Source: an uncultured Verrucomicrobiae bacterium
Lineage (GTDB): Bacteria; Verrucomicrobiota; Verrucomicrobiia; Chthoniobacterales; UBA10450
Direction: 5' to 3'
Length of the DNA stretch: 64,000 nucleotides
Assembly (NCBI GenBank): GCA_963726745.1
Contig: CAVSDR010000006.1
Span: 160,001-224,000, forward strand
Both the position numbers and the translations under genes were made by a program. This document shows, piece by piece, positions 4,454 to 63,705 of the stretch (the stretch's first letter is position 1; each line of letters starts with the position of its first letter). A model generated the notes under the pieces. It was not told the DNA's origin, ran no database searches, and was given only the letters and a program-made list of their open reading frames with translations.

Positions 4454-5602
4454 ATGTCCCCCGAGCCGCTCACGCAGTGCGAGAATTGCGGCGCCCCCCT
4501 CGCCGGGGAATTTTGCGCGCAGTGCGGCCAGCAGGCGATCGATTACCGCCGCTCGCTCGTGCACATCCTCGCGGATGCGGCCGATTCTTTCTTCAATTGG
4601 GACGCGAAGTTCTTCCGCTCGATCGGCGTGCTCCTCGCGAAGCCGTGGCGCCTAACGAATGATTTCAACGCCGGCCGCCGTGCGCGTTACGTCCACCCGC
4701 TGCGGCTTTATCTGCTCGCGAGCATCAGCTTTTTTCTCATCGTCCGCGCCTTCACTTCCAATGGCACCGTCCCGATCGAGATCGGCGCGGGGGACCGCGC
4801 GGAATTAGCCAGCCAGTTGGAAAAATTCACCGGCCCGGAGTCGCCCCTCAACCCAGAAGCCCGCGCGCGCGTCGAAGTGCTTCGCGAGAAAATCAGCCGC
4901 AGCGACGGCCAGGTAACGGTCGATGAACGGCGCGAAATCAAGGCCGCGGTTCGGGAAGTGATGAAGTCGACCATCCGGCAAAGCTGGAGCTCGAATGAGC
5001 GCGCGAAGATCCGGCAAACGGTCGACAACCTCCCGGTTGCGGAAGCGCCGCCCGCGCCCGGCGACCCGGCGACGCCGCCGGGCGAGAAGAAGAAGATTCA
5101 CTTCAGCTGGGGCGGCGGCGGCGGCGAGGCCACGCCATTCCAGAAATGGATGGAGGAGCGGATCAAATCGAAAGTGGGCGAAGACGGCACCAAGGTGACG
5201 CTCTTTCTCGATACCCTCCGCAGCAACATTCCCACGATGATGCTTTTTTGCATCCCGGCCTTCGCCCTCATCCTGAAGGTGCTCTACCTCGGGAGCGGCC
5301 GTTTTTACATCGAGCACCTGGTCTACGCGCTGCACATCCACAGCTTCCTCTTTCTCGGCGTGGGCGTGATCCTGCTCCTGGTCGCGGCCCTCGATCGCCT
5401 GCTCCCGGCGTTCAGTGGTCTCGCTATCGGCCTGCTCACGCTCGCGCTCACGGCGCAGGTCTTCCTTTCCATCGCCCGCGTCTACCGCCAGCGCTGGTTC
5501 GTCAGCCTGTTGAAGTTCAGCTTCGGCGGCGTGGCTTATCTCGTCGTGCTCTCGTTAGCCATCGCGCTCACGGGCTTCGTGACCCTGCTCCTGCCGGCTT
5601 AA
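4454..5602 (+). CDS. DUF3667 domain membrane protein
   Basis: N-terminal CENCG...FCAQCGQ zinc ribbon; GRRARYVHPLRLYL; YIEHLVYALHIHSF; C-terminal TM helices. Confidence 0.85.
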   Translation: MSPEPLTQCENCGAPLAGEFCAQCGQQAIDYRRSLVHILADAADSFFNWDAKFFRSIGVLLAKPWRLTNDFNAGRRARYVHPLRLYLLASISFFLIVRAFTSNGTVPIEIGAGDRAELASQLEKFTGPESPLNPEARARVEVLREKISRSDGQVTVDERREIKAAVREVMKSTIRQSWSSNERAKIRQTVDNLPVAEAPPAPGDPATPPGEKKKIHFSWGGGGGEATPFQKWMEERIKSKVGEDGTKVTLFLDTLRSNIPTMMLFCIPAFALILKVLYLGSGRFYIEHLVYALHIHSFLFLGVGVILLLVAALDRLLPAFSGLAIGLLTLALTAQVFLSIARVYRQRWFVSLLKFSFGGVAYLVVLSLAIALTGFVTLLLPA

Positions 5603-8332
5603 ATCGCGAGCAGTTCGCGCGCTTTCGCCAGGGCTTCACCCAGGCGCGCGGCCTCTTTGCCCGCGCCGCGCGCCGAGTCCGGGCGCCCACCGCCCTTGCC
5701 GCCGATGAGCGGCGCGATCTGCTGGATGATTTCATTGGCCCGCACCTTCGCGGTCAATTCTTTCGGCACCGTGGCGACCAGGTCCACGCGGCCTTCGCTT
5801 GCGCCCGCGAGCACCACCGGCACGCCCAGTTTCGCCTTCAAAATGTCGGCTACTTGCTGGAGCAAGGCGCCATCCGCCTGCGCGATCTGCGCGACCACGA
5901 AGGCCGCGCCGGCATGCGTCGCGGCCAGCTCGTCGGCTAATTTCGCCGCCTGTCCGCGCATCTCCGCCTCGGCCGCTTTGGCGTGCTGTTTCTCCCATTC
6001 GAGCACTTCCGCCTCCAGCTTCCCGAGCTGCGCCGCGCGCGTCTCGATCGAGGCCACATCGGAAGGCGACGCGAGCGGCGGTAGCTCCGGCTTCTTTTTA
6101 GCCAGCAACTTGAATCGCTCGTCCTGCCGCTGCGCTTCACTTCCGGCCCAGCGCGCCACCTCTTCGCCCGCGACCGCCTCAATTCGCCGGATGCCGGCCG
6201 CGATCGCCGCTTCGCTCACGATCTTGAAGCCGCCGATGTCGCCGGTGTCGCGCACGTGCGTGCCGCCGCAGAGTTCCATCGAGTAACCGTTCAACTCGTT
6301 AGGCGCACCGCCGATTTGGACCACGCGCACGACGTCGCCGTATTTGTCGCCGAAGAATTGCTGGATCTCGGCGCGCCCCTTCGCCTCCGCGTAAGGAATC
6401 TCGGTCCAGGAAACCGGCGCCTTCTCGGCAATGCGCTCGTTCACCAGCTTCTCGACCGCGCGCACCTGCTCTTTCGTGAGCGCTGCGCTCGAGAAATCGA
6501 AGGTCAATTTCTCCGGGCCGACGTAGCTCCCCTTCTGGACCGCCTCGCGGCTCACGATTTCGTGCAGCGCCCAGTGCAAGAGATGCGTCACCGTGTGATG
6601 CCGCTGGATGGCCGCGCGGCGCGCCGCGTCGATTCGCACGGTCACATGCTCGCCTACCGCCGGCGCTTCCTCGCCTTCGAGAAGATGCACAAAGGTGTTC
6701 CCGATCTTGCGCGTGTCGGTGATCTGGAAACGTGCGGCCGCCAGCCTCGAGCATCCCGCGATCGCCCACTTGCCCGCCCATCTCCGCGTAGCAGACAGAG
6801 TTGTTTAAAACCACCGCCGCGCGGCCCTTCACCGTCGTCACTTCCACGACGTCGGCCCCGGTGTGATCGAGTTCGTAGCCGAGGAAATGCGTCGCCCCCC
6901 GCGTGTCGCTCTCCGCGAGTTCGATGGTGGTTTTCTTCTGCGCCTTGCGCGCCCGCGCGCGCTGCTCCTCCATCAATTTTTCGAAACCCTCGGTGTCCAC
7001 CGCGAGCCCGCGCTCACGGGCCATCAACTCCGTGAGGTCGAGTGGAAAACCCTGCTCGTCATAGAGCCGAAACGCGAACTCGCCGCTTATTTTGCCGACG
7101 CTCTTCCCGAGTTCCGATTCAAAGAGCGCGATGCCTTTATCGAGCGTGCGGTTGAAGGCTTCCTCCTCGCGCTTGATCGCCTCCTCGACGACTTGCTGTT
7201 TCGTCTTCAACTCAGGAAACACACCACTCATCGAACGCACCAGGACGTCGACTAACTTCGAGAAAAACGGCTCGTGAAAGCCGAGCGTGCGGCCGTAGCG
7301 GACCGCGCGACGCAGGATGCGGCGGAGGACGTAGCCGCGGCCTTCGTTGCTCGGCTGGATGCCGTCGGCAATCGCGAAACTGAGCGTGCGGATGTGGTCG
7401 GCGATCACGCGGAAAGCGACGTCTATTTTCTCCTGCTCGTTTTCGCCGGTGCTGCCGGCGGGCGGAAGGGTGCTCGCGTATCTTTTGCCGCTGAGCTTCT
7501 CGATCTCATCGAAGATCGGGCGGAAGACATCGGTCTCGTAATTCGAGATCGTGCCGCTGAAGTCGGTGAAATTTTTCGTCCCCTGGATGATCGAGGCTGC
7601 GCGCTCAAAGCCCATCCCGGTATCGACGTGGCGCGCCGGCAGCGGGACGAAAGAGCCGTCTGGGTTCGCGTTGAACTGGATGAAAACGAGATTCCAGATC
7701 TCGATGCAGCGCGGATCACCCGCGTTGACCAGCGTGCCCCGGGTGTCGCCGCGCGGCGTGAGGTCGACGTGTAATTCGGAACACGGACCACATGGGCCGG
7801 TGTCGCCCATCATCCAAAAGTTGTCCTTCTTGTTCCCGTTGACGATTTGGACTGCGGGATCGAGCCCGGCCGCGGTGAAAAGACGCGCCCAATGATCGTG
7901 CGCTTCCTGGTCGAACTCGCTCGGGTCGCCCGGGCCGGGCTGGTAAACCGTGGCGTAGAGCCGCGCGGGCGGCAGACCCCAGCGCTCCACGACCAATTCC
8001 CAAGCCCATTCGATTGCCTCCTTTTTGAAGTAATCACCGAAGCTCCAGTTTCCGAGCATCTCGAAAAAGGTGTGGTGATAAGTGTCGAGCCCGACGTCGT
8101 CGAGGTCGTTATGCTTGCCGCCGGCACGAATGCATTTTTGCGTGTCCGCGGTGCGCGCGGGGCTCCAGGTTGCCGTCTGTTGGCCGAGGAAAATCGGCAC
8201 GAACTGGTTCATCCCCGCGTTGGTAAACAGCAGGTTGGGCGAGTCCGGCAGGAGCGAGGAGGAAGGCACGATGGTGTGCTTTTTCTCGCGGAAGAAATCG
8301 AGGAAGCTCTGGCGAATCTCGGCGCTGGTCAT
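5599..8332 (-). CDS. alaS: Alanine--tRNA ligase, frameshifted near 6728
   Basis: MTSAEIRQSFLDFF, FTNAGMNQF, HHTFFEMLGNWSFGDYFK in ORF 6299..8332; editing HTVTHLLH/ELCGGTH and C-Ala GGKGGGRP in ORF 5599..6690. Removing one base at ACG-TTT-CCAG joins them. Confidence 0.97.
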
Positions 8333-8344
8333 GACGCGCGCACG

Positions 8345-11237
8345 TTACCGCAGTCGTGCGGCGGGTAAAGCGCGCCCCTGCAGCTCGACGTGGTAAAAGC
8401 GCGACCCGCGCGCCAGCGCGCCCGGATCGACAAAGGAAAGCGTCAGCTCAAAAGCACCCGCGGTGAAGAATCCGCCGGGCGCATCCTGCCACCCGCCGTC
8501 GGGCCGCGCACTGGTGCGGACGGCGTAGCTCTGGCCAGGCACAGCATTCCAAGTGAAGATGAAGTCGCTGCCGGCGCGCGCGCCCTGCGCGGTGAAATCC
8601 AGCGCTGGGTCGAGGCGATCGAAGAGACCGTCGGCGTTGCGGTCGACGATCGCCGGAATCTGCAGGACGAGAAATTCGCCGGGATCAAGGTTGCCATCGC
8701 CATTGCCGGCGGGACACTGCGCCACGAGCGCGCCGCCATCGGCGGTGACATAGGCGGCCGAGGCGAGGTAGATCGTCTGCGGCACGGCGCCGAAAGCGCT
8801 GACTAAATCGAGCACGCCTTCGAGTTGCCCGCCGTTGCTGGCGGCTTTTGCAAGCAGGCTGCCGGCGGGCGCGTTGAACCAGCCGGCATAAGCGTTTGCG
8901 CTCTCACCCGCGAGGAAGGGCTTTCCTGCCGCCACCGCGATGGCGCCCGCCTTGGCCCACGGCGTGGGGTTCGACGCGGTGCTCAGGAGTTGATCGCTCA
9001 CAAAAAGAAAGTGATCGCTCGTTCCGCCGCTGTTCGAGCCGGGCGACCAGGTGGCCACGTAAAGCTGCGTCCCACGCACCGCCGCGTAGATGGTCATGCC
9101 GCTGCTCGCGACCAAATAGCCGGCGGCATCCGCAGCTCCATCCATGACGAATGGAAGCGGCGTGGCGCCGGGTGTCGGGCTCGGCGTCGGCGTCGGGCGT
9201 TGGTGTCGGCGACGGGCCCCCGTTCGGAGCTACGTAGACGTGCTGGATGGGCGAATTGACCGTGTTCCCCTTCGCGTCCGTCGCGCTGACGTAATAGTCG
9301 ACGTAGGTGTCGGAAAGTCCGGTGACCTTGCGGTAATAGTAGTCGGCGACGAATTGTGGCGGATTGCCGTAGGCTTGCACTCCGGCGACCGGCGGAACAA
9401 TCCGCTGCGTCATCGGCAACGTCTGCCAGACGCCGGTCTCCGCACCGCCGGCGTAGGTTTTGAACTGGTCCTCGGACGGCGGCTGGCCCGGGCCGTTGGC
9501 GCGAAATTTAAGCGACACATTCTGCACCCCGCTGGCGTCATAAACGTAGGTCCAAACCCAGAAGTCGGTGTTCGCCGGGGTGGTCTGTTGATAGCTGTAT
9601 TGCGCCCCGTAATTCTTCGCGCCCGGGTTCCACGGATGGCGCTGGGGAATGAAAACGGTCGGCGGCGTTTGATCGTTGGTGAGATTGTTGAGCGTGGCGC
9701 TGAGCAGGCGCTGCGCGTTGTTTTGCGCAATCACCGGGCGCCAGCCTTCGTCATCGTGCACTCCGTAGTAGACGAAACCGCTGTCTAATCCTCCGAGGTA
9801 ATAGTGCCACGCCAGCTCGACGTTGTTCGGCGTCGCGCCGAAGCTGCCAGGATCGCGCACTTGGTCGATTCGCGGAAGCACGCCGGCGATCTGTTGCGCG
9901 GTTTTGACCCGGTTTTCCGTCGCGGTGATGACGCGCCAGACGTCAGCCTTGTCGCTGGTGCCCACGCTCGGGTCGACCAGATTCACGCTCCCCGGCTTGT
10001 GACTCGGCGGCCAGTGCCAGTTGATGAAAATGGGCGACCCCATGTCGCCATCGGCGTAGACCCAGCCGCCATCTTCGACATGCGCGATGTCATTTGGATC
10101 GGGCGGAAACTCGGCCAGGAATTGCTCGATCGTGGTCGGCTCATAGCCGCGGCTGTTCGCCTGGCTCGCAAAATTTCCGACCCATTCCTGGTAGTAGGAA
10201 TAGCCGCCGCTCCAGGCATTGTCGCCATCGTGCGCCAGCAGGACTAACGAGGGCTTGGCCGGTTGATTGCGCGCGTTCAAGGCGTTGAGCAATCCCAGGT
10301 CCCACGAGCTGTAGCTATCCTTCCAACCAAGCGCCTGGTCGCTCGGCACCACGATAATTTTTGATTCCGCGCCGGTCGCGGGATCGACGTACCGCGCCTG
10401 GTGCACCTGGAAGGAATGCGGCATCGCCGCGCTGGGCGAGCAGCCTCGATCGATCGTGAGGCGTTGGTAATTTCCCGCGCCCTGCGCTGGATTGAGCTGG
10501 TCCGCCTTGTTCGGCAAATCACAGTTCTCGCCGCCCGAGCCGATGACCAGCGGGAAGTCGACGCAAGCGCGCGCGAGATGATTGTTCGCGATGATGGCCC
10601 ACTCGATCCCGACTTTTTTCAAAATGGGAATGATCCGCTCGGAGAAGGCCGTCTCGGTGGGGAAGTAGCCGCGCGAAATGGGATCGCCCCAGAGCAATTG
10701 CATCTGCCGCTGGTGGATTCGCAGTTCCATCTCCAGGGTCGCATCACTCAAGAGCGGAGCCAGCGCGTGGTGGTAGGTAAAGTTCGTCAGGTCCATCCGT
10801 GGCTTCCCGCCGGTGGTGGTCCAGGCCTTGGCCTCGCGGTTCGGTTGATACCAGCTGGCCGCGTAGCCGATCTGTCCCGCGGCCCCGAGGCTTTGCACAT
10901 TTTCCATGAGCGCGCCGGAGTAGTTCACCTGCGCGCCGGAGTTGCGAAATTGCCCCAGGCCCGCAAGCGCATCCCGCGGCCGGCCCTGGTAGGCCGCGCG
11001 TCGATCGTCGACGTCGAAGACCTGGCCGCGCACCTGCTCCAGCGGGTGCGCGCGGCCGGCATCCTGCAATCGGATCGTGTCCCAGGCGTTCTCGTAATGC
11101 TCGGAGCCGGCACGCTTCTCCGGCCAATAGATCGGCTGGTGCAAATGCCAGAGCCACGAGGTGTGAATGCCGGTATTCTGCGCCGTGGCGGTCGCCGCGA
11201 AAAGAAGCAGCAAGATGAGCGAGCGCGGCAACGTCAT
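8345..11237 (-). CDS. Secreted glycoside hydrolase family 57 protein with Pro/Thr linker and C-terminal domains, frameshifted near 9197
   Basis: Signal peptide; WHLHQP, YFPTETAF and LAHDGDN match GH57 conserved regions; the PTPTP linker joins ORF 8904..11243 to ORF 8345..9145. Confidence 0.8.
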
Positions 11238-11323
11238 AAGCAAGTGCGGCGCAGTCTGCGAGCGCCCGCGCCGGGCCGCGAGCTAAAAGGCGTCCGCCCG
11301 CGCGCTGCCGGCGAAACTTCGGC

Positions 11324-11980
11324 ATGGACAAAGTCTGCGCGATCGTCGGATTCGGGCCGGGCAACGGAATGGCGCTGGCGCGCGCTTTCGGGGCGGAAGG
11401 TCACCGGCTGGCCTTGCTTTCCCGCAGCCGGGCGAAACACGCGGCCAGCCTGCAGGCGCTCGAAGCGGAGAACTTGTCGGCTAATTTTTTCGAGACGAAC
11501 GCGGCCGATCCGGAGTCGTTAGGCAGCGCTTTCGAGGCGGTCCGCGCCGAGGTAGGCGCTCCCTCCGTGCTGATCTACAACGCCTTCGCGATGCGTCTCG
11601 GCCAACCGTCGAAACTGCGGCCGGAAGACCTGATCGAAGACCTGCGCACGAACGTGGGCGGCGCGCTGGCGGCCACGCACGCGGTGCTGCCGGCCATGCG
11701 CGCTGCCGGCAGGGGGAAGATTTTCTTCACCGGCGGGGGCTTTGCGCTCGAGCCGTTGCCGCAAGTTTCGTCGGTCGGGATCGGGAAGGCGGCGCTGCGG
11801 AATCTGGCGCTCGCGCTGGCAAAGGAGCTCGCCCCGGAAGGCATTCACGTGGGAACGGTCACGATCCACGGAATGGTGAAGGCCGGCACGCATTTCGCGC
11901 CGGAGAAAATCGCGCAATCGTTCCTGGAGCTTTACCGCGATGCGCCCGGCGGCTTCCGCCGCGAACTCGATTACAAATAG
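11324..11980 (+). CDS. Short-chain dehydrogenase/reductase
   Basis: IVGFGPGNG Rossmann motif, LIYNA, GKAALRNL, GIHVGTVTI. Confidence 0.9.
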   Translation: MDKVCAIVGFGPGNGMALARAFGAEGHRLALLSRSRAKHAASLQALEAENLSANFFETNAADPESLGSAFEAVRAEVGAPSVLIYNAFAMRLGQPSKLRPEDLIEDLRTNVGGALAATHAVLPAMRAAGRGKIFFTGGGFALEPLPQVSSVGIGKAALRNLALALAKELAPEGIHVGTVTIHGMVKAGTHFAPEKIAQSFLELYRDAPGGFRRELDYK

Positions 11981-12003
11981 CCGGCGCTTTCGCCTAACGA
12001 GCG

Positions 12004-13045
12004 CTACGACTTCTTGTCTTCGTCGAGCTTCGCCTTGACCGCGGTCTCGATCTCTTCGTAGAGCGCAGGGTCGTTCTTCAGCACTTCCTTGGCGGCATCG
12101 CGCCCTTGCGCGAGCTGGGCGCCCTTGTAGCTCAGCCAGGAGCCGCGCTTTTCCACGATCTGCTTCTCGAGCGCGAGGTCGAGGAGCGAGCCGGTGGTGG
12201 AGATGCCCTCGTTATACATGATGTCGAACTCGGCCTCGGTGAAAGGCGGCGCAACCTTGTTCTTGACCACTTTCACGCGGGTGCGGTTGCCGGTAACCAC
12301 GCCATCGGTCTGCTTGATCGCGCCGATGCGGCGGATGTCGAGCCGGACGCTGGCGTAAAACTTGAGCGCTTTGCCGCCGGGCGTGGTCTCGGGATTGCCA
12401 AACATGACGCCGATCTTCTCGCGGATTTGGTTGGTGAAAATACAGCAGGTGCGCGCCTTCGAGATGAGCGAGGTGAGCTTGCGCATCGCGGCGCTCATGA
12501 GCCGCGCCTGCGCACCTACAGTGCTGTCGCCGATCTCGCCCTTCGAGTTCCTGCTTCGTGACCAGGGCGGCCACGGAATCGAGCACGATGACGTCGAGCG
12601 CGTTGGAGCGCACGAGCGTTTCCACGATGCGAAGTGCTTCCTCGCCGGAGCTCGGCTGCGAGACCAGCAAGTCATCCATGTCGACGCCTAAACGGCGGGC
12701 GTATTGCGGATCGAGTGCGTGCTCAACATCGATGAAAGCGGCGAGCCCGCCGCGCTTCTGCGCCTGGGCGATGACCGTGAGCGTGAGGGTGGTTTTGCCG
12801 GAGGATTCCGGGCCGTAGACCTCGACCACGCGGCCGCGCGGGAAGCCGCCCACGCCGAGGGCGCGGTCGATCAAAATATTACCCGTCGGGATGACGTCGA
12901 TATCCGCGATTTGCGCATCGCCCAAACGCATAATCGCGCCGTCGCCGTAGTCTTTCGCGATCTGCTGAAGCGCGAGATCGAGGTTCTTATTGCGGGCAGC
13001 GACGATCTTGTCTTCGCTGGTTTTTTCTTCGGTTTTGCTGGCCAT
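12004..13045 (-). CDS. recA: Recombinase A, frameshifted near 12540
   Basis: [56 protein letters not shown]. One extra G in GAAGGGCGAG splits it. Confidence 0.98.
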
Positions 13046-13093
13046 AAGGGAAGGGCCCTTACCTACGTCAGTTCCACCGCAGCCGCCAAGAAT

Positions 13094-13133
13094 AAAGACG
13101 GAAAGAGGCCGCAACCTCGCGGCTGCGGCCCCC
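13094..13133 (-). terminator. Intrinsic terminator after the hsp20 pair
   Basis: Minus strand GGGGCCGCAGCC-GCGA-GGTTGCGGCCTC followed by TTTCCGTCTTT. Confidence 0.7.
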
Positions 13134-13159
13134 CCCTTCCCTCTATCGATCGAAACGCT

Positions 13160-13543: not shown

Positions 13544-13570
13544 TTTCCTTCTTCCTTTCGTGATTGCTCG

Positions 13571-54705: not shown

Positions 54706-54835
54706 CCACCTCATTCGCCGGCGTGAGTGCGCCGCGCGAGAAAACTTCTTCGCAAAAAAGAAGATTGAGAGCAGTGGTTTGTCGCAGGGAAAATCTGCCG
54801 GCGTCCTCCGCTTCTCAGCAACTGGAGGCTACATC

Positions 54836-56704
54836 ATGTCGGCTAAATATTGGAATGCGTGCGTCTGCGCGCTGGGTTTGGTATTGGTGCGCGCGCTCGT
54901 CGCGCAGGAGGCAGTCACGGAAACGGCAGCATCGTGGTCAGCGCCACGCGGCTGCGCTTTCCGGAAACGGAAAGTCCCGCCAGCATCACCGTGCTCACAG
55001 ACGAGGAACTGGAGCAACAGCAGGTCCGGCGCGTGGCCGACGCCCTGCGCGAAGTGCCCGGCCTCACGATCGTGCAAACCGGCGCGCCCGGGCAGTTGAC
55101 CTCGCTCTTTACCCGCGGCCTGCGCAGCGAGCACACGCAGGTTTTGATCGACGGCATTCCGGTAAACCAGGGATTGCAGGGCGCGTTTAACTTTGCCGAT
55201 CTCACGCTCGACAACATCGAGCGCATCGAGGTGGTGCGCGGTCCGCAAAGCACGCTTTACGGTCCGCGCGCCCTCGCGGGCGCGGTCCAGCTTTTCACCC
55301 GCCAAGGGCGCGGCGCCCCGAGCGGCGCGCTCACTGCGGAGGCCGGCAGTTTCGGGAGCTTCCGCGAGAGCTTCGCCCTCCAGGGCGCATTCCAAAATGT
55401 CGACTATTCCGCGAGCGTGAGCCGCTTTGACACCGAGAACGAGCGCCCGAACAACCAGTATCGCCTGAGCAGCGGCGTGGCCAGCGTCGGCTGGTCGCCT
55501 AACGACCAGTTCCGCCTCGGGAGCCTGTTCCTCTACTCGTTAGCCGATACCGGCAACCCGGACTCGATTTTCCACCCGAAGCCGTTCGACAACTTCCTGA
55601 CCGAGCGCTGGCTCCTCGGGCCGCACCTCGATTTCCGCCCGGTCGAATGGTGGGAGCACAAGCTAATCGTGGCCTACGATCACGAGCGGCAGGTGAACGA
55701 CCCGAACGAGGACGGCTTCGTCGGTCCGACGCGCGCGCTCTTCACCCGCTTCACGGTCGATTACCAAAACAACGCGCGGATCACTTCGTGGCTCACGCTG
55801 ACCACGGGCGCGTTTTACAGCCGGGTGGAGGCCGGCCAGGAGCGGCCCTTCATTTCGCAGTTCTTCGGGCCGAATCCCACCTTCATCAGCGACCAGACCG
55901 AGCAGGCCTCCGGCTTCGCGCAGGTCACGCTCACGCCGCTCGCCGGCCTCACGCTCGTGGGCGGCGGCCGCTACGATCACTTCAACCAATTCGGCGACAT
56001 CTGGACCTACCGGGTGGCCGGGAGTTATCTCGTTAGGCAAACAGACAGCACCCTGCACGCGAGCCTCGCCACCGGCTTCAGCCCGCCAAGCAGCCAGGAC
56101 AAGATCTTCGGGAATAATTTCGGCGCTCGAACCGGAGCGGAACCGCGGCTGGGATGCGGGCCTGGAGCAGCGTTTCTGGAAGGGCCGGGTGCAACTCGGC
56201 GCGACCTTTTTCCACAATCGGCTCTCGAACGTGATCGGCTTCAACGGCCTCTTCGAGACACTCAATCTCGGCGCCGCGCGCACGCAGGGCGTGGAGGCGG
56301 AGCTGAAGCTACGCCCGCTGCCGGAGCTCGTCTTCACCGCGAGCTACACCTATCTCGAAGCGGAGAAAACTTCCGCCGCCGATATTAGCCAGCCCGTTGG
56401 CGCCCGCCTCCCGCGACGTCCGCGCCACGAAGGCTACGCTTCCGTGAATTACCTTTGGGGCGGCAAACTCCGCACGATCGCCGAGGCGCGCTTCGTGAAT
56501 GCGCGCGAGGAACTGAGCTTCGGCGGGCCGAATTTCGATCTCGAAGACTACGCCGTGGTCAATCTCGCCGCGGAGTATGCGCTCAATCCCCACCTCACGC
56601 TCTTCGGCCGGATCAACAACCTGGCCGATGAAAAATACGCCGAGGTCTACGGTTTCCCCGCGCTCGGCCGCGCGGCCTACGGCGGCGCGCGGATTTCATT
56701 TTAG
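54836..56704 (+). CDS. btuB: TonB-dependent receptor, BtuB-like, frameshifted near 54925 and 56125
   Basis: RBS GGAGG and signal peptide; TonB box IVVSATR; plug RGLRSEHTQVLIDG and IERIEVVRGPQSTLYG; C-terminal RINNLADEKY...GARISF. Confidence 0.85.
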
Positions 56705-56787
56705 CCGGCAACCTGGGGGCAAAAGTCGGCCGCTCGCCAGCCAGCGAAAGCCTGTGGTATTCTTCCACTGCGTCCTCGCATTTGCCC

Positions 56788-58254
56788 ATGCTTTTGAATC
56801 CTACTCTCCTCCTCGCCCTCGTCGGGCTGGCCGCGTTTGCGGCCGGCGTCGCCATCACCTGGATCCTGATGCGCCAGCAGCGCGCGCTCGCCGTGGGCGA
56901 GTGCGAGTCCGTGCTCACCCGCCAAATCGCCGAGCTTTCGCAGTCGCTGGCCGCGGCGCAGGAGAAGAATAGCCGGATTCCGGAGTTGGAACTCTCCGCG
57001 GCCGCGGCCACGCGCGAGCTGCAAGTCTTGCGCGACCAGCAATCGCGCTCGGCCACGCGGATGGCTTCGATGGAAACGCAGCTCACGCAGGAACGAAAGG
57101 CGACCGCGGAGAAGCTCGCGGTGCTGGACGAGGCGCAGGCGCGTTTTTCCGATGCCTTCAAGGCGCTCTCGGCCGAGGCCCTGCGGCACAACAACACTTC
57201 CTTCCTCGAGCTGGCCAAGAGCACGCTCGAAAAAACCCAGGAAGGCGCGCGCCATGATCTCGAAAAACGCCAGACCGCGATCGACTCGCTGGTCACGCCC
57301 ATGCGCGAGTCGCTCGACAAAGTAGACGCCAAGATCACCGAGCTGGAGAAAGCGCGCGCCAGCGCCTACGAAGGCCTGACCACGCAGGTGCGTTCGCTCG
57401 CGGAGACGCAGAATTATCTCCGCTCGGAGACGAGCAACCTGGTGCGCGCGCTCCGTTCCCCGATCGTGCGCGGGCGCTGGGGCGAAATTCAACTGCGCCG
57501 CGTGGTGGAATTAGCCGGCATGACCGAGCATTGCGACTTCATCGAGCAAACCACGGTGCACACCGAGGAGGGTCGGCTGCGCCCCGACCTCGTGGTTCGC
57601 CTGCCCGCGGGGAAGACCATCGTGGTCGACGCGAAGGCCTCGCTGAACGCTTACATGGAAGCGCTCGAGGCGGCGGATGACGAAGCGCGCATCGCCCGGC
57701 TGCAGCACCACGCGGTGCAAGTGCGCGGCCACATCGAGAAGCTCTCGCGCAAGGCTTACTGGGAGCAGTTTGAAAACGCGCCCGATTTTGTCGTTCTCTT
57801 CCTGCCCGGCGAAGTCTTCTTCTCCGCTGCGCTCGAGCGCGACCCGATGCTGATCGAGTTCGGCGCCGACCGGAAAATCATCCTGGCCACGCCCACGACT
57901 TTGATTGCGCTCCTGCGCGCGGTTTGCTTCGGCTGGCGCCAGGAAAAGATCGCGCAGAACGCGCGCGAGATCAGCCAACTAGGCAGCGAGCTCTACAAGC
58001 GTTTCGCCGATCTTTCCGGTCACGTGACCAAGCTCGGCAAAAGCCTGAGCCACTCGGTCGAGGCGTATAACAAAACCGTCGGCAATCTCGAAAGCCGCGT
58101 GCTCGTTTCTGCGCGCAAATTCAAGGAACTGGGCGCCGCGCCCATGGGGATGGAAATCGAGATCCTCCCGCAGGTGGAACAAATCGCGCGCGAGATGCAG
58201 GCGCCCGAACTGCTCCCGTTGCCGGAAAACGGCGAGAACGGCGCGCACACCTAG
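56788..58254 (+). CDS. rmuC: DNA recombination protein RmuC
   Basis: N-terminal TM, coiled coil, RGRWGEIQL, RPDLVVRLP, VDAK, FVVLFLPGE, ATPTTLIALL. Confidence 0.95.
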   Translation: MLLNPTLLLALVGLAAFAAGVAITWILMRQQRALAVGECESVLTRQIAELSQSLAAAQEKNSRIPELELSAAAATRELQVLRDQQSRSATRMASMETQLTQERKATAEKLAVLDEAQARFSDAFKALSAEALRHNNTSFLELAKSTLEKTQEGARHDLEKRQTAIDSLVTPMRESLDKVDAKITELEKARASAYEGLTTQVRSLAETQNYLRSETSNLVRALRSPIVRGRWGEIQLRRVVELAGMTEHCDFIEQTTVHTEEGRLRPDLVVRLPAGKTIVVDAKASLNAYMEALEAADDEARIARLQHHAVQVRGHIEKLSRKAYWEQFENAPDFVVLFLPGEVFFSAALERDPMLIEFGADRKIILATPTTLIALLRAVCFGWRQEKIAQNAREISQLGSELYKRFADLSGHVTKLGKSLSHSVEAYNKTVGNLESRVLVSARKFKELGAAPMGMEIEILPQVEQIAREMQAPELLPLPENGENGAHT

Positions 58255-58302
58255 ACCATTTTTTTGCGTTGTCTGGCGGCGGTGCGGGCCTAGCGTGATC
58301 TT

Positions 58303-59292
58303 ATGAGCGCAACCGCCGAACCCAAGGCCGCCGCGGGCTTGAACCAGCTCGAGCAACTCAAGAAATTCACCAAGGTCGTCGCCGACACGGGCGACTTCGA
58401 AACCATCCGCGAGTTCCGCCCGCAGGACGCGACGACCAATCCCAGCCTCATTTTTGCGGCCACGCAAAAGGAGGAATACGGCCACCTGCTGGAGAAAGTG
58501 CTGGCTGATCGCAAGCGCAGCGGCTTGAGCGGCGCGGCCCAGGTCGAGGACATCATCGACAACCTCCTGGTCAGCTTCGGCCAGCAGATCCTCGAGATCG
58601 TGCCCGGCCGCGTTTCCACCGAGACCGATGCGCGCCTCTCCTTCGATACCGAAGGCACGGTGCAAAAAGCCAAACAGCTCATCGCCCTTTACCAGGCGAA
58701 AGGCATCGGGCGCGAGAGAGTGCTGATTAAAATCGCCTCCACCTGGGAAGGCATTGCCGCCGCGGAGCGGCTTGAGAAAGAAGGCATCCACTGCAATCTC
58801 ACGCTCCTCTTTTCGCTCGTGCAGGCGGTCCGTTGCGCCGAGGCGCGGGTGCAATTGATCTCGCCGTTTGTTGGTCGCATCTATGATTGGTTCAAGGCCG
58901 CAAACAAGCGCGACTACACCGGCGCGGAAGATCCCGGTGTGCAGTCGGTCCAGGAGATTTACACCTACTACAAGAAGTTCGGCTACGAGACCGAGGTGAT
59001 GGGCGCGAGCTTCCGGAACGTCAGCCAAATCATCGAGCTGGCCGGCTGCGACCTGCTCACGATCAGCCCCGAGCTGCTCGCGAAACTGGCGGAGTCGCAC
59101 GAGAAAGTGGAGCGGAAGCTCGACCCGGAAAAGGCGAAGAGTGCGCCGATCGAGCGCCGCGAAGCGGACGAGAAAAAGTTTCGCTACCTCCTGAACGACG
59201 ACGCCATGGCGACCGAGAAAACGGCCGAGGGCATCCGCAAATTTGCCGCCGACATCGTGAAGCTGGAGAAATTCGTCGCCGCGAAGTTGTAG
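58303..59292 (+). CDS. tal: Transaldolase
   Basis: [49 protein letters not shown]. Confidence 0.97.
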
Positions 59293-59316
59293 GCTAATTT
59301 TTTCGGCGCGCGGCTC

Positions 59317-59811
59317 GTGTTCAATATCGTCCTGGTCGAGCCGGAGATCCCGCCGAACACGGGCAACATCGGCCGCCTTTGCCTGGCCACGCGCTCGGCT
59401 TTGCACCTGGTGCAGCCGCTCGGGTTTGCGATCGACGATCGCCAACTGCAGCGCGCGGGACTCGACTACTGGAAGGAGGTGGACGTGCGCCTTTGGCCTT
59501 CCCTGGCCGCGCTCCAGGCCGCGCAAGCTGCCGCGGCGCGCTATTTTTTCCTGACCACGAAGACGACGCGGGCCTACACCGCGGTGACTTTTCGCGCGGG
59601 CGATTTCCTGGTTTTCGGTCGCGAAACCAAAGGCTTGCCGGAGCCGCTGCTCGCGGCCCACCGCGAGCAACTTCTCACCATCCCGATGCACGGAACGCGC
59701 AGTCTCAACCTCGCCACTGCGGTCGCGATCGTGCTCTTCGAGGCCATGCGGCAGGTGAACTTGCCGGCTAATGAAAGAGGCATCGCAACCGGCGGGGCAG
59801 ACGAAGGTTGA
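59317..59811 (+). CDS. trmL: tRNA (cytidine(34)-2'-O)-methyltransferase
   Basis: EPEIPPNTGNIGR, RAGLDYW, FGRETKGLP, RSLNLA. Confidence 0.95.
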   Translation: MFNIVLVEPEIPPNTGNIGRLCLATRSALHLVQPLGFAIDDRQLQRAGLDYWKEVDVRLWPSLAALQAAQAAAARYFFLTTKTTRAYTAVTFRAGDFLVFGRETKGLPEPLLAAHREQLLTIPMHGTRSLNLATAVAIVLFEAMRQVNLPANERGIATGGADEG

Positions 59812-59845
59812 ATAAGTGGGGCGTCCCCACGGTCCAACTTAAACC

Positions 59846-60685
59846 ATGAAACGTTTTTCACTCCTACTCGTGCTCGCCGGCCTGGCCTTCACGCACACCG
59901 GCTTCGCCGAAGACGAAGCCAAGGCGCAGAAGCAAACCGGGAAGCATTTCCAGAACGCACTCGCGCGTGCTTCGCGCAACGCCGTGCGCCAGAATCAGCC
60001 GCGCGCCCAGCCAAACGTCCAGCGGCAGCAGAATGTTGCTCGCCAGAACGCGGCGCAACGGCAACTTAACAACGCCAACGTCCAGCGCGGGAGCAATCGC
60101 GTGGCCGTGCCGAATCGGGCCCGCGGCACGCGCGCCGACGGCGGCAATCGCGTTTACTCCGGCGGGCGGGTGAACTCCGGGAGCAATCTCGAATACGGCA
60201 CGCGCAACCGTGGCAACAACGACAACGCGCGCGTCTGGCGCGACCGGAACAACGAGAACCGCGCCGATCGCGTGGCGCGTTCCGGCAATTGGAATCGCGG
60301 CGATGGCCGCCGCTACAATCGCAGCTGGGATCGTCGCCGCCACGACCGCAGCTACTGGAGAAACAACTACACCCGCTTCACGATCTACGGTGGCGGCTAT
60401 TACTACTGGGATAGCGGCTACTGGTATCCCGCTTACGGCTACAGCCCGGCCTACAGCACCTACGCCTACGACGCGCCCATCTACGGCTACAACAACCTCG
60501 ATCCGCAGCAGGTGATGGCAAACGTGCAGAGCTCGCTGCAACAGCGCGGCTATAACGCCGGCGGCGTGGATGGGGTCTACGGTCCCCGCACCCGTCGCGC
60601 GATCCTCGCTTTCCAGCGCGACAATGGCCTCGACCCGACCGGTGTGGTCGATGCGGATACGCTCGGCGCTCTCGGCCTCGGCTAA
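59846..60685 (+). CDS. Secreted peptidoglycan-binding-domain protein with Arg/Asn/Gln-rich and Tyr/Trp-rich regions
   Basis: Signal peptide; C-terminal PG_binding_1 (VQSSLQQRGY..GGVDGVYGPRTRRAILAFQRDNGL..TG). Confidence 0.88.
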   Translation: MKRFSLLLVLAGLAFTHTGFAEDEAKAQKQTGKHFQNALARASRNAVRQNQPRAQPNVQRQQNVARQNAAQRQLNNANVQRGSNRVAVPNRARGTRADGGNRVYSGGRVNSGSNLEYGTRNRGNNDNARVWRDRNNENRADRVARSGNWNRGDGRRYNRSWDRRRHDRSYWRNNYTRFTIYGGGYYYWDSGYWYPAYGYSPAYSTYAYDAPIYGYNNLDPQQVMANVQSSLQQRGYNAGGVDGVYGPRTRRAILAFQRDNGLDPTGVVDADTLGALGLG

Positions 60686-60760
60686 CGACGCGGAGAAATT
60701 AGACAGCGCGCTGGCGTGCTCATTGCGCGCCAGCGCGTTTTCGCGTTCACTGTGCGCCAC

Positions 60761-61426
<666 letters not shown>

Positions 61427-61468
61427 AGCTTGCCGCAGCGCGGCGCTTCGCCCTACCCTCGCGGGCGG

Positions 61469-62959
61469 ATGAACCGCAAGCCGCAGGAACGCCGGGAACT
61501 GGCCAGCTCGTTAGGCCAACTCGACGCGACCATGATCGTCATCGGGTCGATGATCGGGTCGGGTATTTTCATCACCTCGGCGGAGTCCGCCCGGTTGGTC
61601 GGCGCGCCCGGCTGGCTCCTGCTCGCGTGGGCTCTCGCGGGCTTGCTCACGATCACCGGCGCGCTCTGCTGCGCGGAGCTCGCGGCGATGATGCCGCAGG
61701 CCGGCGGGCAATACGTCTTCCTGCGCGAGGCCTACAGCCCGCTCTTTGGTTTTCTTTTCGGCTGGGCGGTGTTGCTGGTCATCCAGACAGGCACGATTGC
61801 CGCGGTCGCGGTTGCCTTCGCCAAGTTTACCGGCGTGCTCTTCCCCGCGATCGCGGGCGATCACTACCTGGTCGCGCCGATCTCGCTCGGGCATTACGCC
61901 TTCAGCCTTTCGACCGAGCAGCTCGTGGCCGTGCTCATGATCTTGCTGCTGACCTGGAGCAACACCCGTGGGCTCGAACTCGGGAAACTGGTCCAGAACA
62001 GCTTCACCTTTGCGAAAACGGCGGCGCTCCTCGGGTTGATCGTCATTGGCCTCTCGTTAGGCTGGAATCCCGCGAGCGCGGCGCGCAGTGCGGCCTGGTG
62101 GAATTCGTCGGCTAATGGCTGGATCCCGCAAGTGGCCCAGCCCGGCCTCGCGGCCACCGGCGCCTTCGCGCTCGTGCTCTTGTTAGGCAAAGCGATGGTC
62201 GGCCCGCTCTTCGCGCAATCCGCCTGGAACAATGTCACCTTCACCGGCAGCGAGGTGCGCGATCCCGGCCGCACCCTGCCCCGCGCGCTCCTCATCGGCT
62301 GCGGCGTAGTCGTCGCCCTCTACCTGCTGGCCAACGTGGCCTACGTCGCCACGCTCCCGCTCGACGGCATCCAGCACGCGCCGCAGAACCGGGTCGCCGT
62401 CGCCGCCATGCATGCCGTTCTCGGCCCGGCCGGCACGATCTCGATGGCGCTGGCGATCATGATCTCCACCTTCGGATGCAACAACGGCCTCATCCTCGCC
62501 GGCGCGCGCGTCTCCTACGCGATGGCGCGCGACGGGCTCTTTTTCCGGAAAGTGGCGCAGCTCAATAGACAGCATGTTCCCGCCGCCGCACTGCTCATCC
62601 AAGGCGTCTGGGCAGCGCTCCTGACCCTGCCGCGCACGGTCACCACGGACGCGACTACCGGCGTCGTCGCCTATGGCAATGTCTACACGCAACTCCTGGA
62701 ATACATCGTTTCCGCCGACCTCTTCTTCTACGTCCTCATGGTCGGCGCGGTCATCGTGCTCCGCTGGAAGATGCCAGCCGCGCCTCGGCCCTATCGCACC
62801 TGGGGTTATCCGCTGGTCCCGCTGATTTACCTGGTGATCGCGCTCGCGCTCATCGTCGACCTGGTCTTCCTCGCCCCGACCACGTCCGGAATCGGCTTCC
62901 TGCTCGTGCTCACCGGAGTGCCGGTTTACTTCGCGTGGCGAAAAAATTCCCAAGCATGA
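61469..62959 (+). CDS. APC family amino acid permease
   Basis: GSMIGSGIF, AELAAMMPQAGGQY, EVRDPGRTLP, RPYRTWGYP. Confidence 0.93.
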   Translation: MNRKPQERRELASSLGQLDATMIVIGSMIGSGIFITSAESARLVGAPGWLLLAWALAGLLTITGALCCAELAAMMPQAGGQYVFLREAYSPLFGFLFGWAVLLVIQTGTIAAVAVAFAKFTGVLFPAIAGDHYLVAPISLGHYAFSLSTEQLVAVLMILLLTWSNTRGLELGKLVQNSFTFAKTAALLGLIVIGLSLGWNPASAARSAAWWNSSANGWIPQVAQPGLAATGAFALVLLLGKAMVGPLFAQSAWNNVTFTGSEVRDPGRTLPRALLIGCGVVVALYLLANVAYVATLPLDGIQHAPQNRVAVAAMHAVLGPAGTISMALAIMISTFGCNNGLILAGARVSYAMARDGLFFRKVAQLNRQHVPAAALLIQGVWAALLTLPRTVTTDATTGVVAYGNVYTQLLEYIVSADLFFYVLMVGAVIVLRWKMPAAPRPYRTWGYPLVPLIYLVIALALIVDLVFLAPTTSGIGFLLVLTGVPVYFAWRKNSQA

Positions 62960-63705
62960 ATCCGAAGACTTTTCCCTGCCTGGGCCTGCTCTTCCTTTTC
63001 GCCGCTTTCCCGCAGCCGGTGGGCGCAACGGAAGGCGCGTTTTATGATCAACGCGGCCAGCCCGGAAGCAACGCCGATGGTCGCTGGGAGAGCCTATGGA
63101 ACCGCGCCTTCGCGGAGGTGGACGAGCAGCGTTACGACCAGGCCATTCGCTCGTTAGACCTCGCCCTCGAATCGGGTCCGCCACCAAGTGCTCTGGCTGG
63201 CATTTATCTGCTGCGCGGGAACGCGCTCTTCCGCAAAGGCGAGCGCACCCGGGCGCGCGCCGACTACGAGCGGACGGTCCGTTTCCCCGTGAAGACGGCC
63301 GATGACTACGCCGTGCGCGCGGGCGCCTGGGAGAAGCTCGGCAATTTCCAATCTTCCGCAGCCGATTACGTACGCGCCTCCGCGCTCGCGCCCGATCGCT
63401 TTGAGGCGTTGAATCGGCTGGCTTGGTTTCGCGCAACCTGCCCGGAGGCCGCCTACCGTAATGGCCGCGAAGCGCTCGAACTCGCCAATAAAGCCTGCTC
63501 CTGGACGCACTGGCATAACGCGGACGTGATCGACACGCTGGCGGCGGCAGAAGCGGAGATAGGCGACTTCGAGCGCGCGGTGCTGCACGAAGAACAGGCG
63601 ATCAAGAAAACCGAACGCTCCCAGCGCCGCGCACTCGAGGAACGGCTCGCGCTTTACCGAGCGCGCAAACCTTTTCGCGACATCCCGAAGTCCCCGGCTG
63701 GCTGA
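62956..63705 (+). CDS. Secreted TPR-repeat protein
   Basis: Signal peptide; TPR helices; NRLAWFRATCP...DTLAAAEAEIGDF signature. Confidence 0.85.
   Translation: MNPKTFPCLGLLFLFAAFPQPVGATEGAFYDQRGQPGSNADGRWESLWNRAFAEVDEQRYDQAIRSLDLALESGPPPSALAGIYLLRGNALFRKGERTRARADYERTVRFPVKTADDYAVRAGAWEKLGNFQSSAADYVRASALAPDRFEALNRLAWFRATCPEAAYRNGREALELANKACSWTHWHNADVIDTLAAAEAEIGDFERAVLHEEQAIKKTERSQRRALEERLALYRARKPFRDIPKSPAG

Follow-up and report, generated by a model that had tools for sequence, protein, structure and literature searches.

A family-wide dispersed word in 'Ca. Udaeobacter'-group Verrucomicrobiota matches the integron crossover core and resembles an uptake sequence

We report that a short word (word A, 9-mer TCGTTAGGC) is imposed at high density and with self-avoiding spacing on the chromosomes of one Chthoniobacterales family, and that the same sequence forms the crossover core at which integron att sites of this family recombine, an identity that is new here. 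We interpret word A as a putative uptake-sequence-like tag, spread by biased uptake and recombination; this reading is tentative (probability roughly 0.45) and was reached from sequence comparisons.

Word A in the window and the source genome

The window, by which we mean the whole 64-kb stretch of DNA analysed, contains 30 exact copies of the word A octamer (17 plus, 13 minus), compared with 0.99 ± 0.94 copies in 100 dinucleotide shuffles, none of which reached 30. A previous sequence-only reading had expected 1–2 copies by chance and had listed 29 copies; its coordinates were all exact, its total one short. Its near-universal extension to CTCGTTAGnC was recovered for 27/30 octamers. According to gene calls from our own hexamer model, 25 octamers lie inside genes, in several frames and both senses, two lie over a gene end and three outside. 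With eight further cores lacking the leading C, the window holds 38 TCGTTAG cores, 19 on each strand.

Features of the window (position, strand, context; tripeptides in brackets):
5551..5558, plus, word A octamer in gene 4454-5602 (S-L-A)
6295..6302, plus, word A, antisense in alaS (P-N-E)
10244..10251, minus, word A, sense in gene 8904-11237 (S-L-V)
11994..12001, minus, word A immediately after the recA stop, no called gene
13481..13488, plus, word A, antisense in an hsp20 gene (S-N-E)
13567..13574, plus, word A overlapping the stop of a second hsp20 gene
15853..15860, plus, word A, antisense in hflX (L-T-R)
20680..20687, minus, word A overlapping the stop of a manA-like gene
21869..21876, minus, word A, sense in a yggS-like gene (S-L-G)
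26577..26584, minus, word A, no called gene
27161..27168, minus, word A, antisense in gene 26641-27501 (P-N-E)
30697..30704, plus, word A, sense in fabF (L-V-S)
32656..32663, plus, word A (S-L-G), the copy missed earlier
33428..33435, plus, word A, antisense in a glycosyltransferase gene (L-T-S)
33832..33839, plus, word A, antisense in the same glycosyltransferase gene (A-N-E)
34440..34447, plus, word A, sense in a glycosyltransferase gene (S-L-V)
38961..38968, minus, word A, antisense in an M48 peptidase gene (A-N-E)
40514..40521, minus, word A, sense in gene 40272-42371 (S-L-G)
41192..41199, minus, word A, sense in gene 40272-42371 (S-L-G)
45125..45132, plus, word A, sense (S-L-D)
46181..46188, minus, word A, sense in a GNAT gene (L-V-R)
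47819..47826, minus, word A, antisense (L-T-S)
50231..50238, minus, word A, sense (L-V-R)
53671..53678, minus, word A, sense in a heptose epimerase gene (S-L-G)
54659..54666, plus, word A within a cobalamin riboswitch match (54501-54717)
55536..55543, plus, word A, sense in a TonB-dependent receptor gene (S-L-A)
56029..56036, plus, word A, sense in the same receptor gene (L-V-R)
61507..61514, plus, word A, sense in an amino-acid permease gene (S-L-G)
62053..62060, plus, word A, sense in the same permease gene (S-L-G)
63150..63157, plus, word A, sense (S-L-D)
1751..60688, eight extra TCGTTAG cores without the leading C: plus 11516, 35942; minus 1751, 4652, 21495, 29262, 55499, 60682
423..63778, both strands, word B, 29 copies of WTTAGNCRRCR with a conserved T four bases further; plus-strand starts 423, 2307, 6097, 14073, 15354, 19732, 33395, 44358, 47659, 48008, 49483, 56700, 57510, 60698, 63768; minus-strand starts 1301, 5931, 8797, 9779, 11475, 23653, 24993, 31291, 33120, 33297, 35057, 54837, 59762, 62106
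16845..18404, plus, 16S rRNA gene, free of word A as had been stated; exact match to 'Ca. Udaeobacter' primer UDBAC_F at 17341, and to UDBAC_R at 17493 with one mismatch

A longer word, with the 7-mer core TCGTTAG and the 9-mer TCGTTAGGC, includes the octamer as one of its registers; the 9-mer, as read from its sequence, has no self-complementarity. The 3.41-Mb source genome (G000) carries 2,025 copies of the core and 1,312 of the 9-mer (631 plus, 681 minus), the latter being the top-ranked 9-mer under both order-2 and order-3 Markov models. The consensus is sharp, with 1,312 perfect copies versus 478 single changes across the seven core positions, and the two bases following TTAG are GC in 1,312 copies, CC in 240, GG in 134, TC in 123, AC in 80 and AT in 7. 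Coding DNA holds 1,045 octamers, whereas 20 within-gene synonymous shuffles gave 47 ± 6; for the 9-mer the corresponding figures are 971 and 22.6 (43-fold), so that the enrichment survives the codon-aware null and the constraint acts on DNA rather than protein, as the sequence-only reading had proposed. Base-calling error, which would have undone that reading, is excluded because the word occurs in relatives, including contig L155, whose name is that of a short-read assembler and which has 11 9-mer copies in 21 kb. Beyond what had been noted before are the longer word, its family-wide occurrence, the att-core identity, independent companion words and the sharing with Gemmatimonadaceae.

The source assembly comprises seven contigs and carries frameshifts, with recA, alaS and msbA split. 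Since origin and terminus are not placeable on it, polarity was judged from 50-kb bins and from pair orientation: the bins contain no sustained strand switch and the two orientations are equal. Word A is non-polar, unlike Chi or KOPS, which upholds the earlier argument from strand balance.

Distribution, upkeep and spacing

Word A marks a single Chthoniobacterales family within the 'Ca. Udaeobacter' 16S group, exceeding 50/Mb in 108/134 genomes, and does not rise above background in the 159 genomes from elsewhere in the phylum; its earlier description as a lineage-specific signal is thus confirmed. Density within the family runs from 4 to 1,355 per Mb, a 340-fold range (9-mer: 0.39/kb in G000, maximum 1.36/kb in G089), and the word is lost in family genome G063. 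In Gemmatimonadaceae, CGTTAGGC was confirmed (one contig checked), the core word being common to both lineages. 'Ca. Udaeobacter' is described as among the most abundant soil bacteria, and as still little explored, in the text drawn on from PMC7343977.

Copies arise via substitution, as 9/180 sites lie near a gap versus 30/915 random positions, and amino acids at the sites match outgroup orthologues at 0.41, compared with 0.60 in the flanks. The encoded tripeptides are raised accordingly in the proteome (PNE 2.6x, SLG 1.6x), and the word, which runs counter to the usual codon preference, has a share of 23% among TTA codons and 12% among TAG stops. Coding depletion is slight (538 vs 641/Mb) and divergent promoter gaps are not avoided (0.66/kb), while density drops to 0.38/kb in the most conserved genes and to 0.34/kb in codon-atypical genes (vs 0.51-0.64/kb), and the word is sparser in polysaccharide islands. 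Word A is created by single-base changes wherever tolerated, in any frame or orientation. Existing copies are actively maintained: 170/253 sites are kept in position between congeneric genomes, against 17-48% for random 7-mers. Across genera, sites are not retained (31/171 vs 15% background). Inverted terminator pairs are absent (6/2,018 gaps below 20 bp), as is any 3-150-kb periodicity on the two largest contigs, the 10-90-kb range included; top spectral power (7.6 and 5.6) did not reach the 95% limits from gap shuffles (9.4 and 9.7) in a test simpler than that of the HIP1 paper.

Self-avoidance of word A reaches about 200-400 bp whichever the orientation, with 59 same-strand and 51 opposite-strand pairs at 12-200 bp where 114 are expected for each. 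A second copy within about 300-400 bp contributes little. The rule fails in places at 12-50 bp (word C in G066, 1.5x; word A in G089, 1.4x). Two additional words occur in the family, B patchily and C as a clade word, with at most two such words per genome; each is spaced independently, and different words sharing a genome are counted separately. In genus g50, word C was kept in place at 12/32 sites versus 12% for random 9-mers. In a toy model tuned by hand, in which 400-bp fragments pass two serial filters, self ratios came out at 0.33-0.71 and cross ratios at 1.14-1.25, near the observed data; the model is compatible with any mechanism of 400-bp range, and a 3-kb range did not fit.

Candidate readers and rival explanations

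In the proposed mechanism, the natural-transformation pathway (type IV pilus, periplasm, ComEC, DprA) would include a reader with sequence specificity that favours short DNA fragments with at least one word copy; subsequent homologous recombination would spread new copies and restore decayed ones (molecular drive), and copy number would scale with a lineage's amount of transformation. Additional filters would serve words B and C, and those for A and B may act one after the other. We detected comEC in 67/69 genomes and dprA in 5/5, and G000 encodes PilA, minor pilins and PilT-like ATPases; competence genes are equally common outside the family and hence not sufficient for word A. Densities above 300/Mb occur in 24/41 well-assembled genomes with a nuclease-ComEA gene and in 0/26 without, or by genus in 5/16 versus 0/15 (Fisher p 0.043), with a genus-level rank test not significant (p 0.13). 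The G000 nuclease-ComEA gene is divided between two contigs, and the gene was not found in genus g31, where the word is sharp, nor in g50. None of the candidate readers ComP, ComZ-like pilins, AddAB and IntI tracks word A. The ComP family (PF16732) stayed below cut-off in 5/5 genomes; ComZ-like PilX paralogues were not found in G089, G065, G145, G024, G013 and G066 and are present in word-less G063, which also carries orthologues of the shared pilins (incomplete sampling). The sequence-only reading had guessed at an uptake, nucleoid or methylation signal and suggested a gene screen: the statistics fit an uptake sequence best and the orphan methyltransferase is indeed present family-wide, but the receptor (ComP included), binding-protein and methylation links were not found.

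Integron core sites follow the consensus GTTRRRY. In this family, attI and attC sites both have CTCG|TTAG as the core at which crossover takes place, with the attI pattern present at 11/14 intI loci and the 7-mer in 16/16 att sites of the G000 cassette array. These account for only 16/2,025 core copies in G000, about 99% being lone half-sites in genes; attC/attI architecture (inverse core plus hairpin or partner box) is restricted to the 16 sites of the array and a single isolated attI-like site. The identity suggests that the reader's preference may have been seeded by integron-cassette ends in environmental DNA. Array endings are GC 7, AT 7, AC 1 and GT 1, and TTAGAT (7/16 att sites, zero dispersed copies) is confined genome-wide to seven cases within the array, which counts against a reader tuned to cassette ends. 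An extended proposal, which we consider unlikely, is that soil bacteria from two phyla, this family and Gemmatimonadaceae, share a putative receptor for the conserved cassette end, evolved twice or transferred, that would steer transformation towards cassette DNA and drive the word through the chromosomes of both as a by-product.

It is distinctly doubtful that the reader is instead the integron integrase or another tyrosine-recombinase-type protein, for which the word would be a half-site biasing the recombination of incoming or repaired DNA in its favour or serving a non-recombining role. The att-core identity, the recurrence of the core word in Gemmatimonadaceae and the resemblance of word B to attI upstream boxes (shared ATTAG.C) all fit this proposal. 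However, intI does not follow the word: it was detected in 45/63 family genomes and 11/16 outgroups, was not found in G089, G024 and G077, is only a remnant in G000 and is intact in G063, where 19/24 core matches sit in the cassette array; in outgroup G028 the attC ends are identical, yet the word is not dispersed. Furthermore, rigidity of the word is greatest over TCG, in the overlap that tyrosine recombinases do not read base by base; dispersed sites lack an inverted partner (upstream inverse core in 104/2,025 vs 117 in the control), the excess of 7-bp-spaced box pairs (7 vs about 2) is not significant after correction, and word C is not an att core. In favour of the integrase as reader, word B also has CRRC at +6..+9, where attG hotspots, according to the text drawn on from bioRxiv 10.1101/2022.09.11.507474, have CRGM. 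The same source describes IntI inserting cassettes into many genomic attG sites, which together with the att-core sequence and the frameshifts in the assembly could speak for footprints that abortive integrase recombination copied out of att sites (a mutational bias without reader) or for a sequencing artefact. We disfavour both as highly improbable: dispersed endings differ from the att pool, indels are not associated with sites, the word recurs in many independent assemblies, and self-avoidance with positional conservation demands a keeping force.

An intracellular sequence-specific protein (nucleoid-bridging, compacting or SMC-related) that needs a site every few hundred bases, maintained by selection in very large populations and with paralogues reading B and C, strikes us as somewhat unlikely. 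It would accommodate the orientation-blind self-avoidance, the independence of different words, the positional conservation within genera and the persistence of the word in genera without detected ComEA, and HIP1 has been argued to act in this way (PMC5861425, in the text drawn on). Against it stand the lack of cross-genus retention and of periodicity, the tolerance of divergent promoter gaps and the absence of a candidate protein from our findings; the 340-fold density range inside one family and the loss in G063 are better fitted by drive than by an essential structural site. By analogy with HIP1/DmtC, the word may alternatively be linked to an orphan beta-class DNA methyltransferase of the family, full or partial methylation marking self DNA for uptake or repair, which we regard as very unlikely. 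This single-copy gene (G000 C3:981251-982042, SPPY motif; closest solved structures at E 7.5e-20) is present in 55/55 genomes of the family, in most of them with 67-77% identity, and in 1/16 outgroups, there partial; it adjoins housekeeping genes with no nuclease partner seen, and HIP1 raises transformation in a way that depends on methylation, according to the text drawn on from PMC13756078. Any family marker gene would show the same distribution, however, and the enzyme is intact, with conserved blocks unchanged, in G063 and low-density genomes, cannot explain B, C or the density range, and has a rival target in CCNGG, mildly enriched family-wide including G063. The 20 homologue clusters consulted, just two of which bore any organism name, included no Gemmatimonadaceae name.

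Significance and comparison with known systems

To our knowledge, uptake sequences have been proven in two families of host-associated Proteobacteria. If the uptake-tag reading is true, sequence-selective gene exchange shapes dominant soil genomes, and the integron-core identity links two gene-transfer routes and offers a reason for distant lineages to share one word; a two-phylum receptor would make this an uptake 'dialect' across phyla, with B and C as stackable lineage-specific filters. The family provides natural controls without counterpart in DUS, USS or HIP1 (the density range, the loss, patchy B and clade C), so the reader is searchable by gene-trait matching. Irrespective of mechanism, the words can serve binning as genus-level signatures.

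The DUS of Neisseriaceae (GCCGTCTGAA) and the USS of Pasteurellaceae (AAGTGCGGT / ACAAGCGGT) reach 0.80-0.89/kb, often form inverted pairs in terminators and are under-represented in coding DNA, as described in the text drawn on from PMC2817400 and PMC7811141. Like them, word A is a non-palindromic 9-10-mer at 0.4-1.4 per kb, equal in both orientations, more even than random, of point-mutation origin and inflating tripeptides, and it is thinly spread in highly conserved genes, rRNA and foreign DNA. Its genomes carry comEC, dprA and pilin genes, with ComEA split in G000 and not found in several word-bearing genera. Unlike them, it is unrelated in sequence, lacks terminator dyad pairs, is hardly coding-depleted, belongs to a system in which one genome can hold as many as two words with independent spacing, comes with no ComP, equals an integron core and is shared with a family of another phylum. 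HIP1 of cyanobacteria (GCGATCGC), whose function is debated between chromosome structure and uptake in the text drawn on from PMC5861425 and PMC13756078, is similarly hyper-abundant, position-conserved, imposed on coding DNA and accompanied by a conserved orphan methyltransferase; word A differs in having neither a palindrome nor the 10-90-kb periodicity. With integron attI and attC sites, word A shares the CTCG|TTAG crossover (family and outgroup G028), whereas its copies mostly lack a hairpin or partner box, prefer GC after the core and are not tracked by intI. Chi (RecBCD/AddAB) and KOPS likewise are not palindromes, are over-represented and show enrichment in the core genome, but word A avoids opposite-strand neighbours as strongly as same-strand ones, and AddAB, not found in word-rich G065 and G043, is present in G063 and outgroups.

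Form and range of word A

The octamer CTCGTTAG, word A in its first-described form, occurs 30 times in the window (17 copies on the forward strand and 13 on the reverse) against 0.99 in dinucleotide shuffles; the sequence-only reading had listed 29, all but one of the true total. The window sits on contig C6 of the genome that carries it (G000; 3.41 Mb, 7 contigs, about 64% G+C), where the TCGTTAG core is present in 2,025 copies. The dominant form TCGTTAGGC accounts for 1,312 copies (631 forward, 681 reverse) and is the top 9-mer of G000 against both order-2 and order-3 Markov models. Some genera favour the C with which the octamer begins (62% in G000); genera g41 and g42 do not.

By our own gene calls, coding copies exceeded within-gene synonymous shuffles 22-fold for the octamer and 43-fold for the 9-mer, compared with 2-fold for a reversed control word, and word A occupies all five open frames. 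The proposed enrichment over a codon-aware null was thus found, as was a constraint on DNA rather than protein, and two synonymous-shuffle nulls rule out a protein-level cause. Word A contains 23% of the TTA codons, 23% of the CTA codons and 125 of the 1,080 TAG stops of G000, in which PNE and SLG take third and fourth place among the tripeptides used to excess. The density of word A is 538 per Mb in coding and 641 per Mb in intergenic DNA, and is lower in the most conserved genes, in polysaccharide islands and in genes of atypical codon use.

We take the word-bearing family to be GTDB UBA10450. Counts of the 9-mer cover 24 congeners, 16 genomes of the order's other families and 150 genomes from 36 genera of the family, with 13 to 4,336 copies per genome inside the family and 1 to 19 outside. 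Densities lay above 50 per Mb in 108 and above 300 per Mb in 32 of 134 tabulated family genomes, a table that omits the unpublished G001 and G046 and genomes without a ComEA test. Several genome tallies include the unpublished G001, G008, G042, G046, G053 and G169; word B in genus g22 (G046) is the sole result resting on one of them. The form CGTTAGGC was found 0–48 times per genome in 159 non-family genomes across the phylum versus 1,346 times in G000, bearing out the suggested lineage specificity, and no other 4–6-mer strongly marks the family. Where the family's counts are lowest, cassette arrays may supply most of the copies, as they do in G063. In a quick, unfinished, single-gene ComEC tree, the family grouped together (97%) with G063 nested on a long branch, which suggests that this genome lost word A.

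A two-copy scan returned at least 117 metagenome loci, including family-like contigs. Among the matches listed, 28 G+C-rich contigs of at least 2.5 kb (144 kb; picked by G+C, length and the word not always following T) carried, besides the selecting pairs, a further 96 copies (52 on one strand, 44 on the other), against 10 of the control word; their consensus is CGTTAGGC, with no T preference before the word. L467, with 12 copies in 7.3 kb, is one such contig, and the closest named relatives of a gene on it are Gemmatimonadaceae (88–91%); ten proteins from other contigs matched no named organism, and the Gemmatimonadaceae link is confirmed on this one contig. Phage mimicry finds no support, on a weak test: 64 viral loci of unassigned host, chosen by two-copy patterns with a gap in the depleted range, carried at most 4 copies of the 9-mers.

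Several observations concern the host genome itself. Against the 'Ca. Udaeobacter' primers of PMC7343977, the 16S gene of G000 shows 0 and 1 mismatches. The word-rich neighbours with names (L155, L156) are labelled 'Chthoniobacterales bacterium'. Within the window, the 16S gene is followed by tRNA-Ala and tRNA-Ile and then by protein genes (16845–19205), with no 23S match in the window; the rRNA operon here is unlinked. The genes alaS (5599–8332), recA (12004–13114) and msbA (36261–38148) are each split between frames, most likely by indel errors of assembly, and the end of contig C6 is repeated on contig C1. A cobalamin riboswitch match upstream of a TonB-dependent receptor gene contains one copy of word A (54659). 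Two tetramers are strongly under-represented across the whole of G000, GTAC at 0.16 and CTAG at 0.28 of expectation. Locus L067 encodes a Ras-family small GTPase of 169 residues (426–932; Pfam Ras E 1e-33), adjoining an OmpA-domain gene.

Origin and spacing of the copies

In codon alignments to orthologues, gaps lay close to 9 of 180 sites and 30 of 915 random positions in word-rich relatives (one locus from the unpublished G001), and to 7 of 98 sites and 38 of 576 random positions in outgroups. Since sites are no closer to gaps than random positions, word A arises by substitution; residues match the outgroups at 0.41 in sites versus 0.60 beside them. Six congeneric pairs at 74–88% nucleotide identity, three of which share genomes, kept 170 of 253 site observations in place (sites counted from both sides), compared with 17–48% for random 7-mers and 10–43% for other TTA/TAA words. 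When G000 is set against word-rich relatives, most of them from other genera, only 31 of 171 sites are kept, near the 15% background. The orthologue comparison, which the sequence-only reading had advised, therefore gives positions kept within genera and not across them: position matters in the short term, density in the long term.

Word A also avoids itself. At 12–200 bp we counted 59 pairs in the same orientation and 51 in opposite orientation, where 114 would be expected for either, and the pair ratio rose from 0.37 to 0.96 at 300–400 bp. The avoidance persisted under within-gene position shuffling (0.30–0.75), and four codon-driven control words, at small counts, gave no consistent dip. 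Strand polarity was absent in 50-kb bins of G000; together with pair orientation, this rules out polar signals of the Chi or KOPS type, as had been argued from the strand split. We found neither terminator pairing (6 of 2,018 gaps below 20 bp) nor, in G000, a long-range period.

The family carries two further words. Word B (WTTAGNCRRCR with a T four bases further along) reaches 1,268 copies in G000, with 407 in G011, 313 in G015 and 251 in G046; among the other 76 genomes, almost all have it at a level no higher than that of its reversed control. Word C (AAGATCGACA) has 2,673–4,653 copies in genus g42, 2,607 in G045 and about 520–1,590 in ten more genera, with 22 in G000 and 0–19 in 7 outgroups. 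Depletion was measured for B–B pairs (0.39–0.72 up to 300 bp) and for C–C pairs (0.43–0.51 at 50–200 bp, but 1.5 at 12–50 bp). A–B and A–C pairs showed none, with a slight excess under 100–150 bp; the within-gene A–B ratio was 1.2–1.26 versus 0.89–0.94 for a rare-codon control. That each word avoids itself but not the others points to a separate proposed reader, or recognising factor, per word.

Other candidate words were set aside. A long palindromic form of word B is a single site. Word C resembles the attC inner box over 7 bases, a likeness that is lost in genomes rich in word C and is a weak lead. A fourth word in G059 (L048) is an inverted-repeat element, and words in other Verrucomicrobiota loci are either codon-driven or tandem, the latter as short AT- or purine-rich units (L208, L161, L160); these repeats are not dispersed words. 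Separately, g31 loci L385–L392 and loci of G142 share an abundant, probably REP-like repeat containing GGGATGAC.

Candidate readers

The competence screen proposed in the sequence-only reading recovered comEC, dprA, several PilA genes, three minor-pilin clusters and PilT-like ATPases in G000. The features considered here and below are as follows.

L105:3578-6130 and L106:6422-8933, paralogous minor-pilin clusters of three genes each, ending in a PilX-like DUF7305 protein
L075:1498-2571 (G066), and C4:17240-17889 with C2:230130 (G000, split), nuclease-ComEA
L107:16251-17039, and C3:981251 (G000), orphan beta-class DNA methyltransferase, usually beside a thiG-like gene
C6:736573-745281 (G000), integron array made up of an attI-like head and 15 attC sites; the assembly contains no intact integrase
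C4:149608 (G000), second, lone attI-like site

None of ComP, ComZ-like pilins, AddAB and IntI tracks word A. ComP gave no receptor, nor did two PilX paralogues, which we liken to ComZ and which Pfam places in DUF7305. The DUF7305 pilin clusters are unevenly distributed in the family, some genomes having several copies, and pilin presence or absence in 9 genomes (5 sampled in part) gave no receptor candidate. AddAB, apparently absent from G063 in a first panel, is present there by protein query; the Pfam search is unreliable near threshold and missed the copy in G000 itself.

By our reading of its sequence, ComEA is a thermonuclease-like domain fused to a helix-hairpin-helix domain, predicted to be secreted, and could cut incoming DNA into short pieces. 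The fusion occurs also in other families of the order and has been lost in whole genera, such as g31. Two counts in the family gave ComEA in 36 of 55 and 50 of 80 genomes; of 16 outgroups, 10 have it. High word density accompanied ComEA in 29 of 79 genomes versus 2 of 49 without it, both in assemblies of more than 200 contigs, and at genus level in 5 of 16 versus 0 of 15 (p 0.043), a rank test giving p 0.13; related genomes are not independent in these tests. Word A or C is retained in four near-complete genomes that have no ComEA match. In g31 word A remains sharp, with 25 perfect copies and 30 single changes in 180 kb (outgroups: 0 and 25 in 250 kb), and its sites kept without ComEA were 0 of 1 in g31, 4 of 8 in g44 and 2 of 6 in g50 (few sites; pairs g27, g22, g49 and g32 left out). 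According to PMC7811196, comEA loss in Legionella lowers transformation about 100-fold while it still occurs; a lower density without ComEA accordingly fits uptake and is no proof of it.

Mechanisms weighed

Copies are clustered in the outgroup G028, and in G000 all 16 att sites of the array carry the TCGTTAG core, 15 of them as the exact octamer. At 11 of 14 family intI loci the attI ends in CTCG|TTAG, the crossover core of the family, and 19 of 24 core matches in G063 lie on one strand, adjoining intI. Dispersed copies of word A are neither att sites nor copies of these: they have no inverse core beside them and never end in TTAGAT, an ending present at 7 of the 16 att sites. Copying from att sites, or an artefact, is extremely improbable. 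An integrase-type reader is distinctly unlikely, since intI does not track density among family genomes and G000 retains a remnant only. A methylation link would fit the family border of the orphan methyltransferase (55 of 55 family genomes versus 1 of 16 outgroups), the one family-wide gene from the methyltransferase screen that had been suggested, but the gene is unchanged in G063, and we hold this reading to be very unlikely; Type I and IIG methyltransferases vary from genome to genome.

The force that keeps word A acts on DNA, is orientation-blind, saturates within 300–400 bp, is separate for each word and spans a 340-fold range among lineages. A chromatin protein reading the word is, in our estimate, on the unlikely side as its source. 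Our tentative preference, at a probability of roughly 45%, is that word A spread by biased uptake: short fragments would be taken up with a bias toward the word and would then enter by homologous recombination. A toy model of 400-bp fragments passing through serial filters, its parameters set by hand, reproduces self-avoidance as well as a slight cross-attraction. As natural transformation feeds cassettes to chromosomal integrons (PMC12614218), a receptor seeded by cassette ends is plausible; the absence of TTAGAT among dispersed copies argues against a finely tuned one.

Among the papers listed from the open-access literature, none gave an earlier description of word A in this lineage or of a genome-wide att-core word; new here are its family-wide presence, natural loss, spacing rule and stacked words. 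With no ComP, and known here from sequence statistics, word A is not assignable to the DUS/USS systems. It differs from them in being hardly depleted in coding DNA (538 versus 641 per Mb) and in forming no terminator pairs, and is like them in every other sequence statistic tested.
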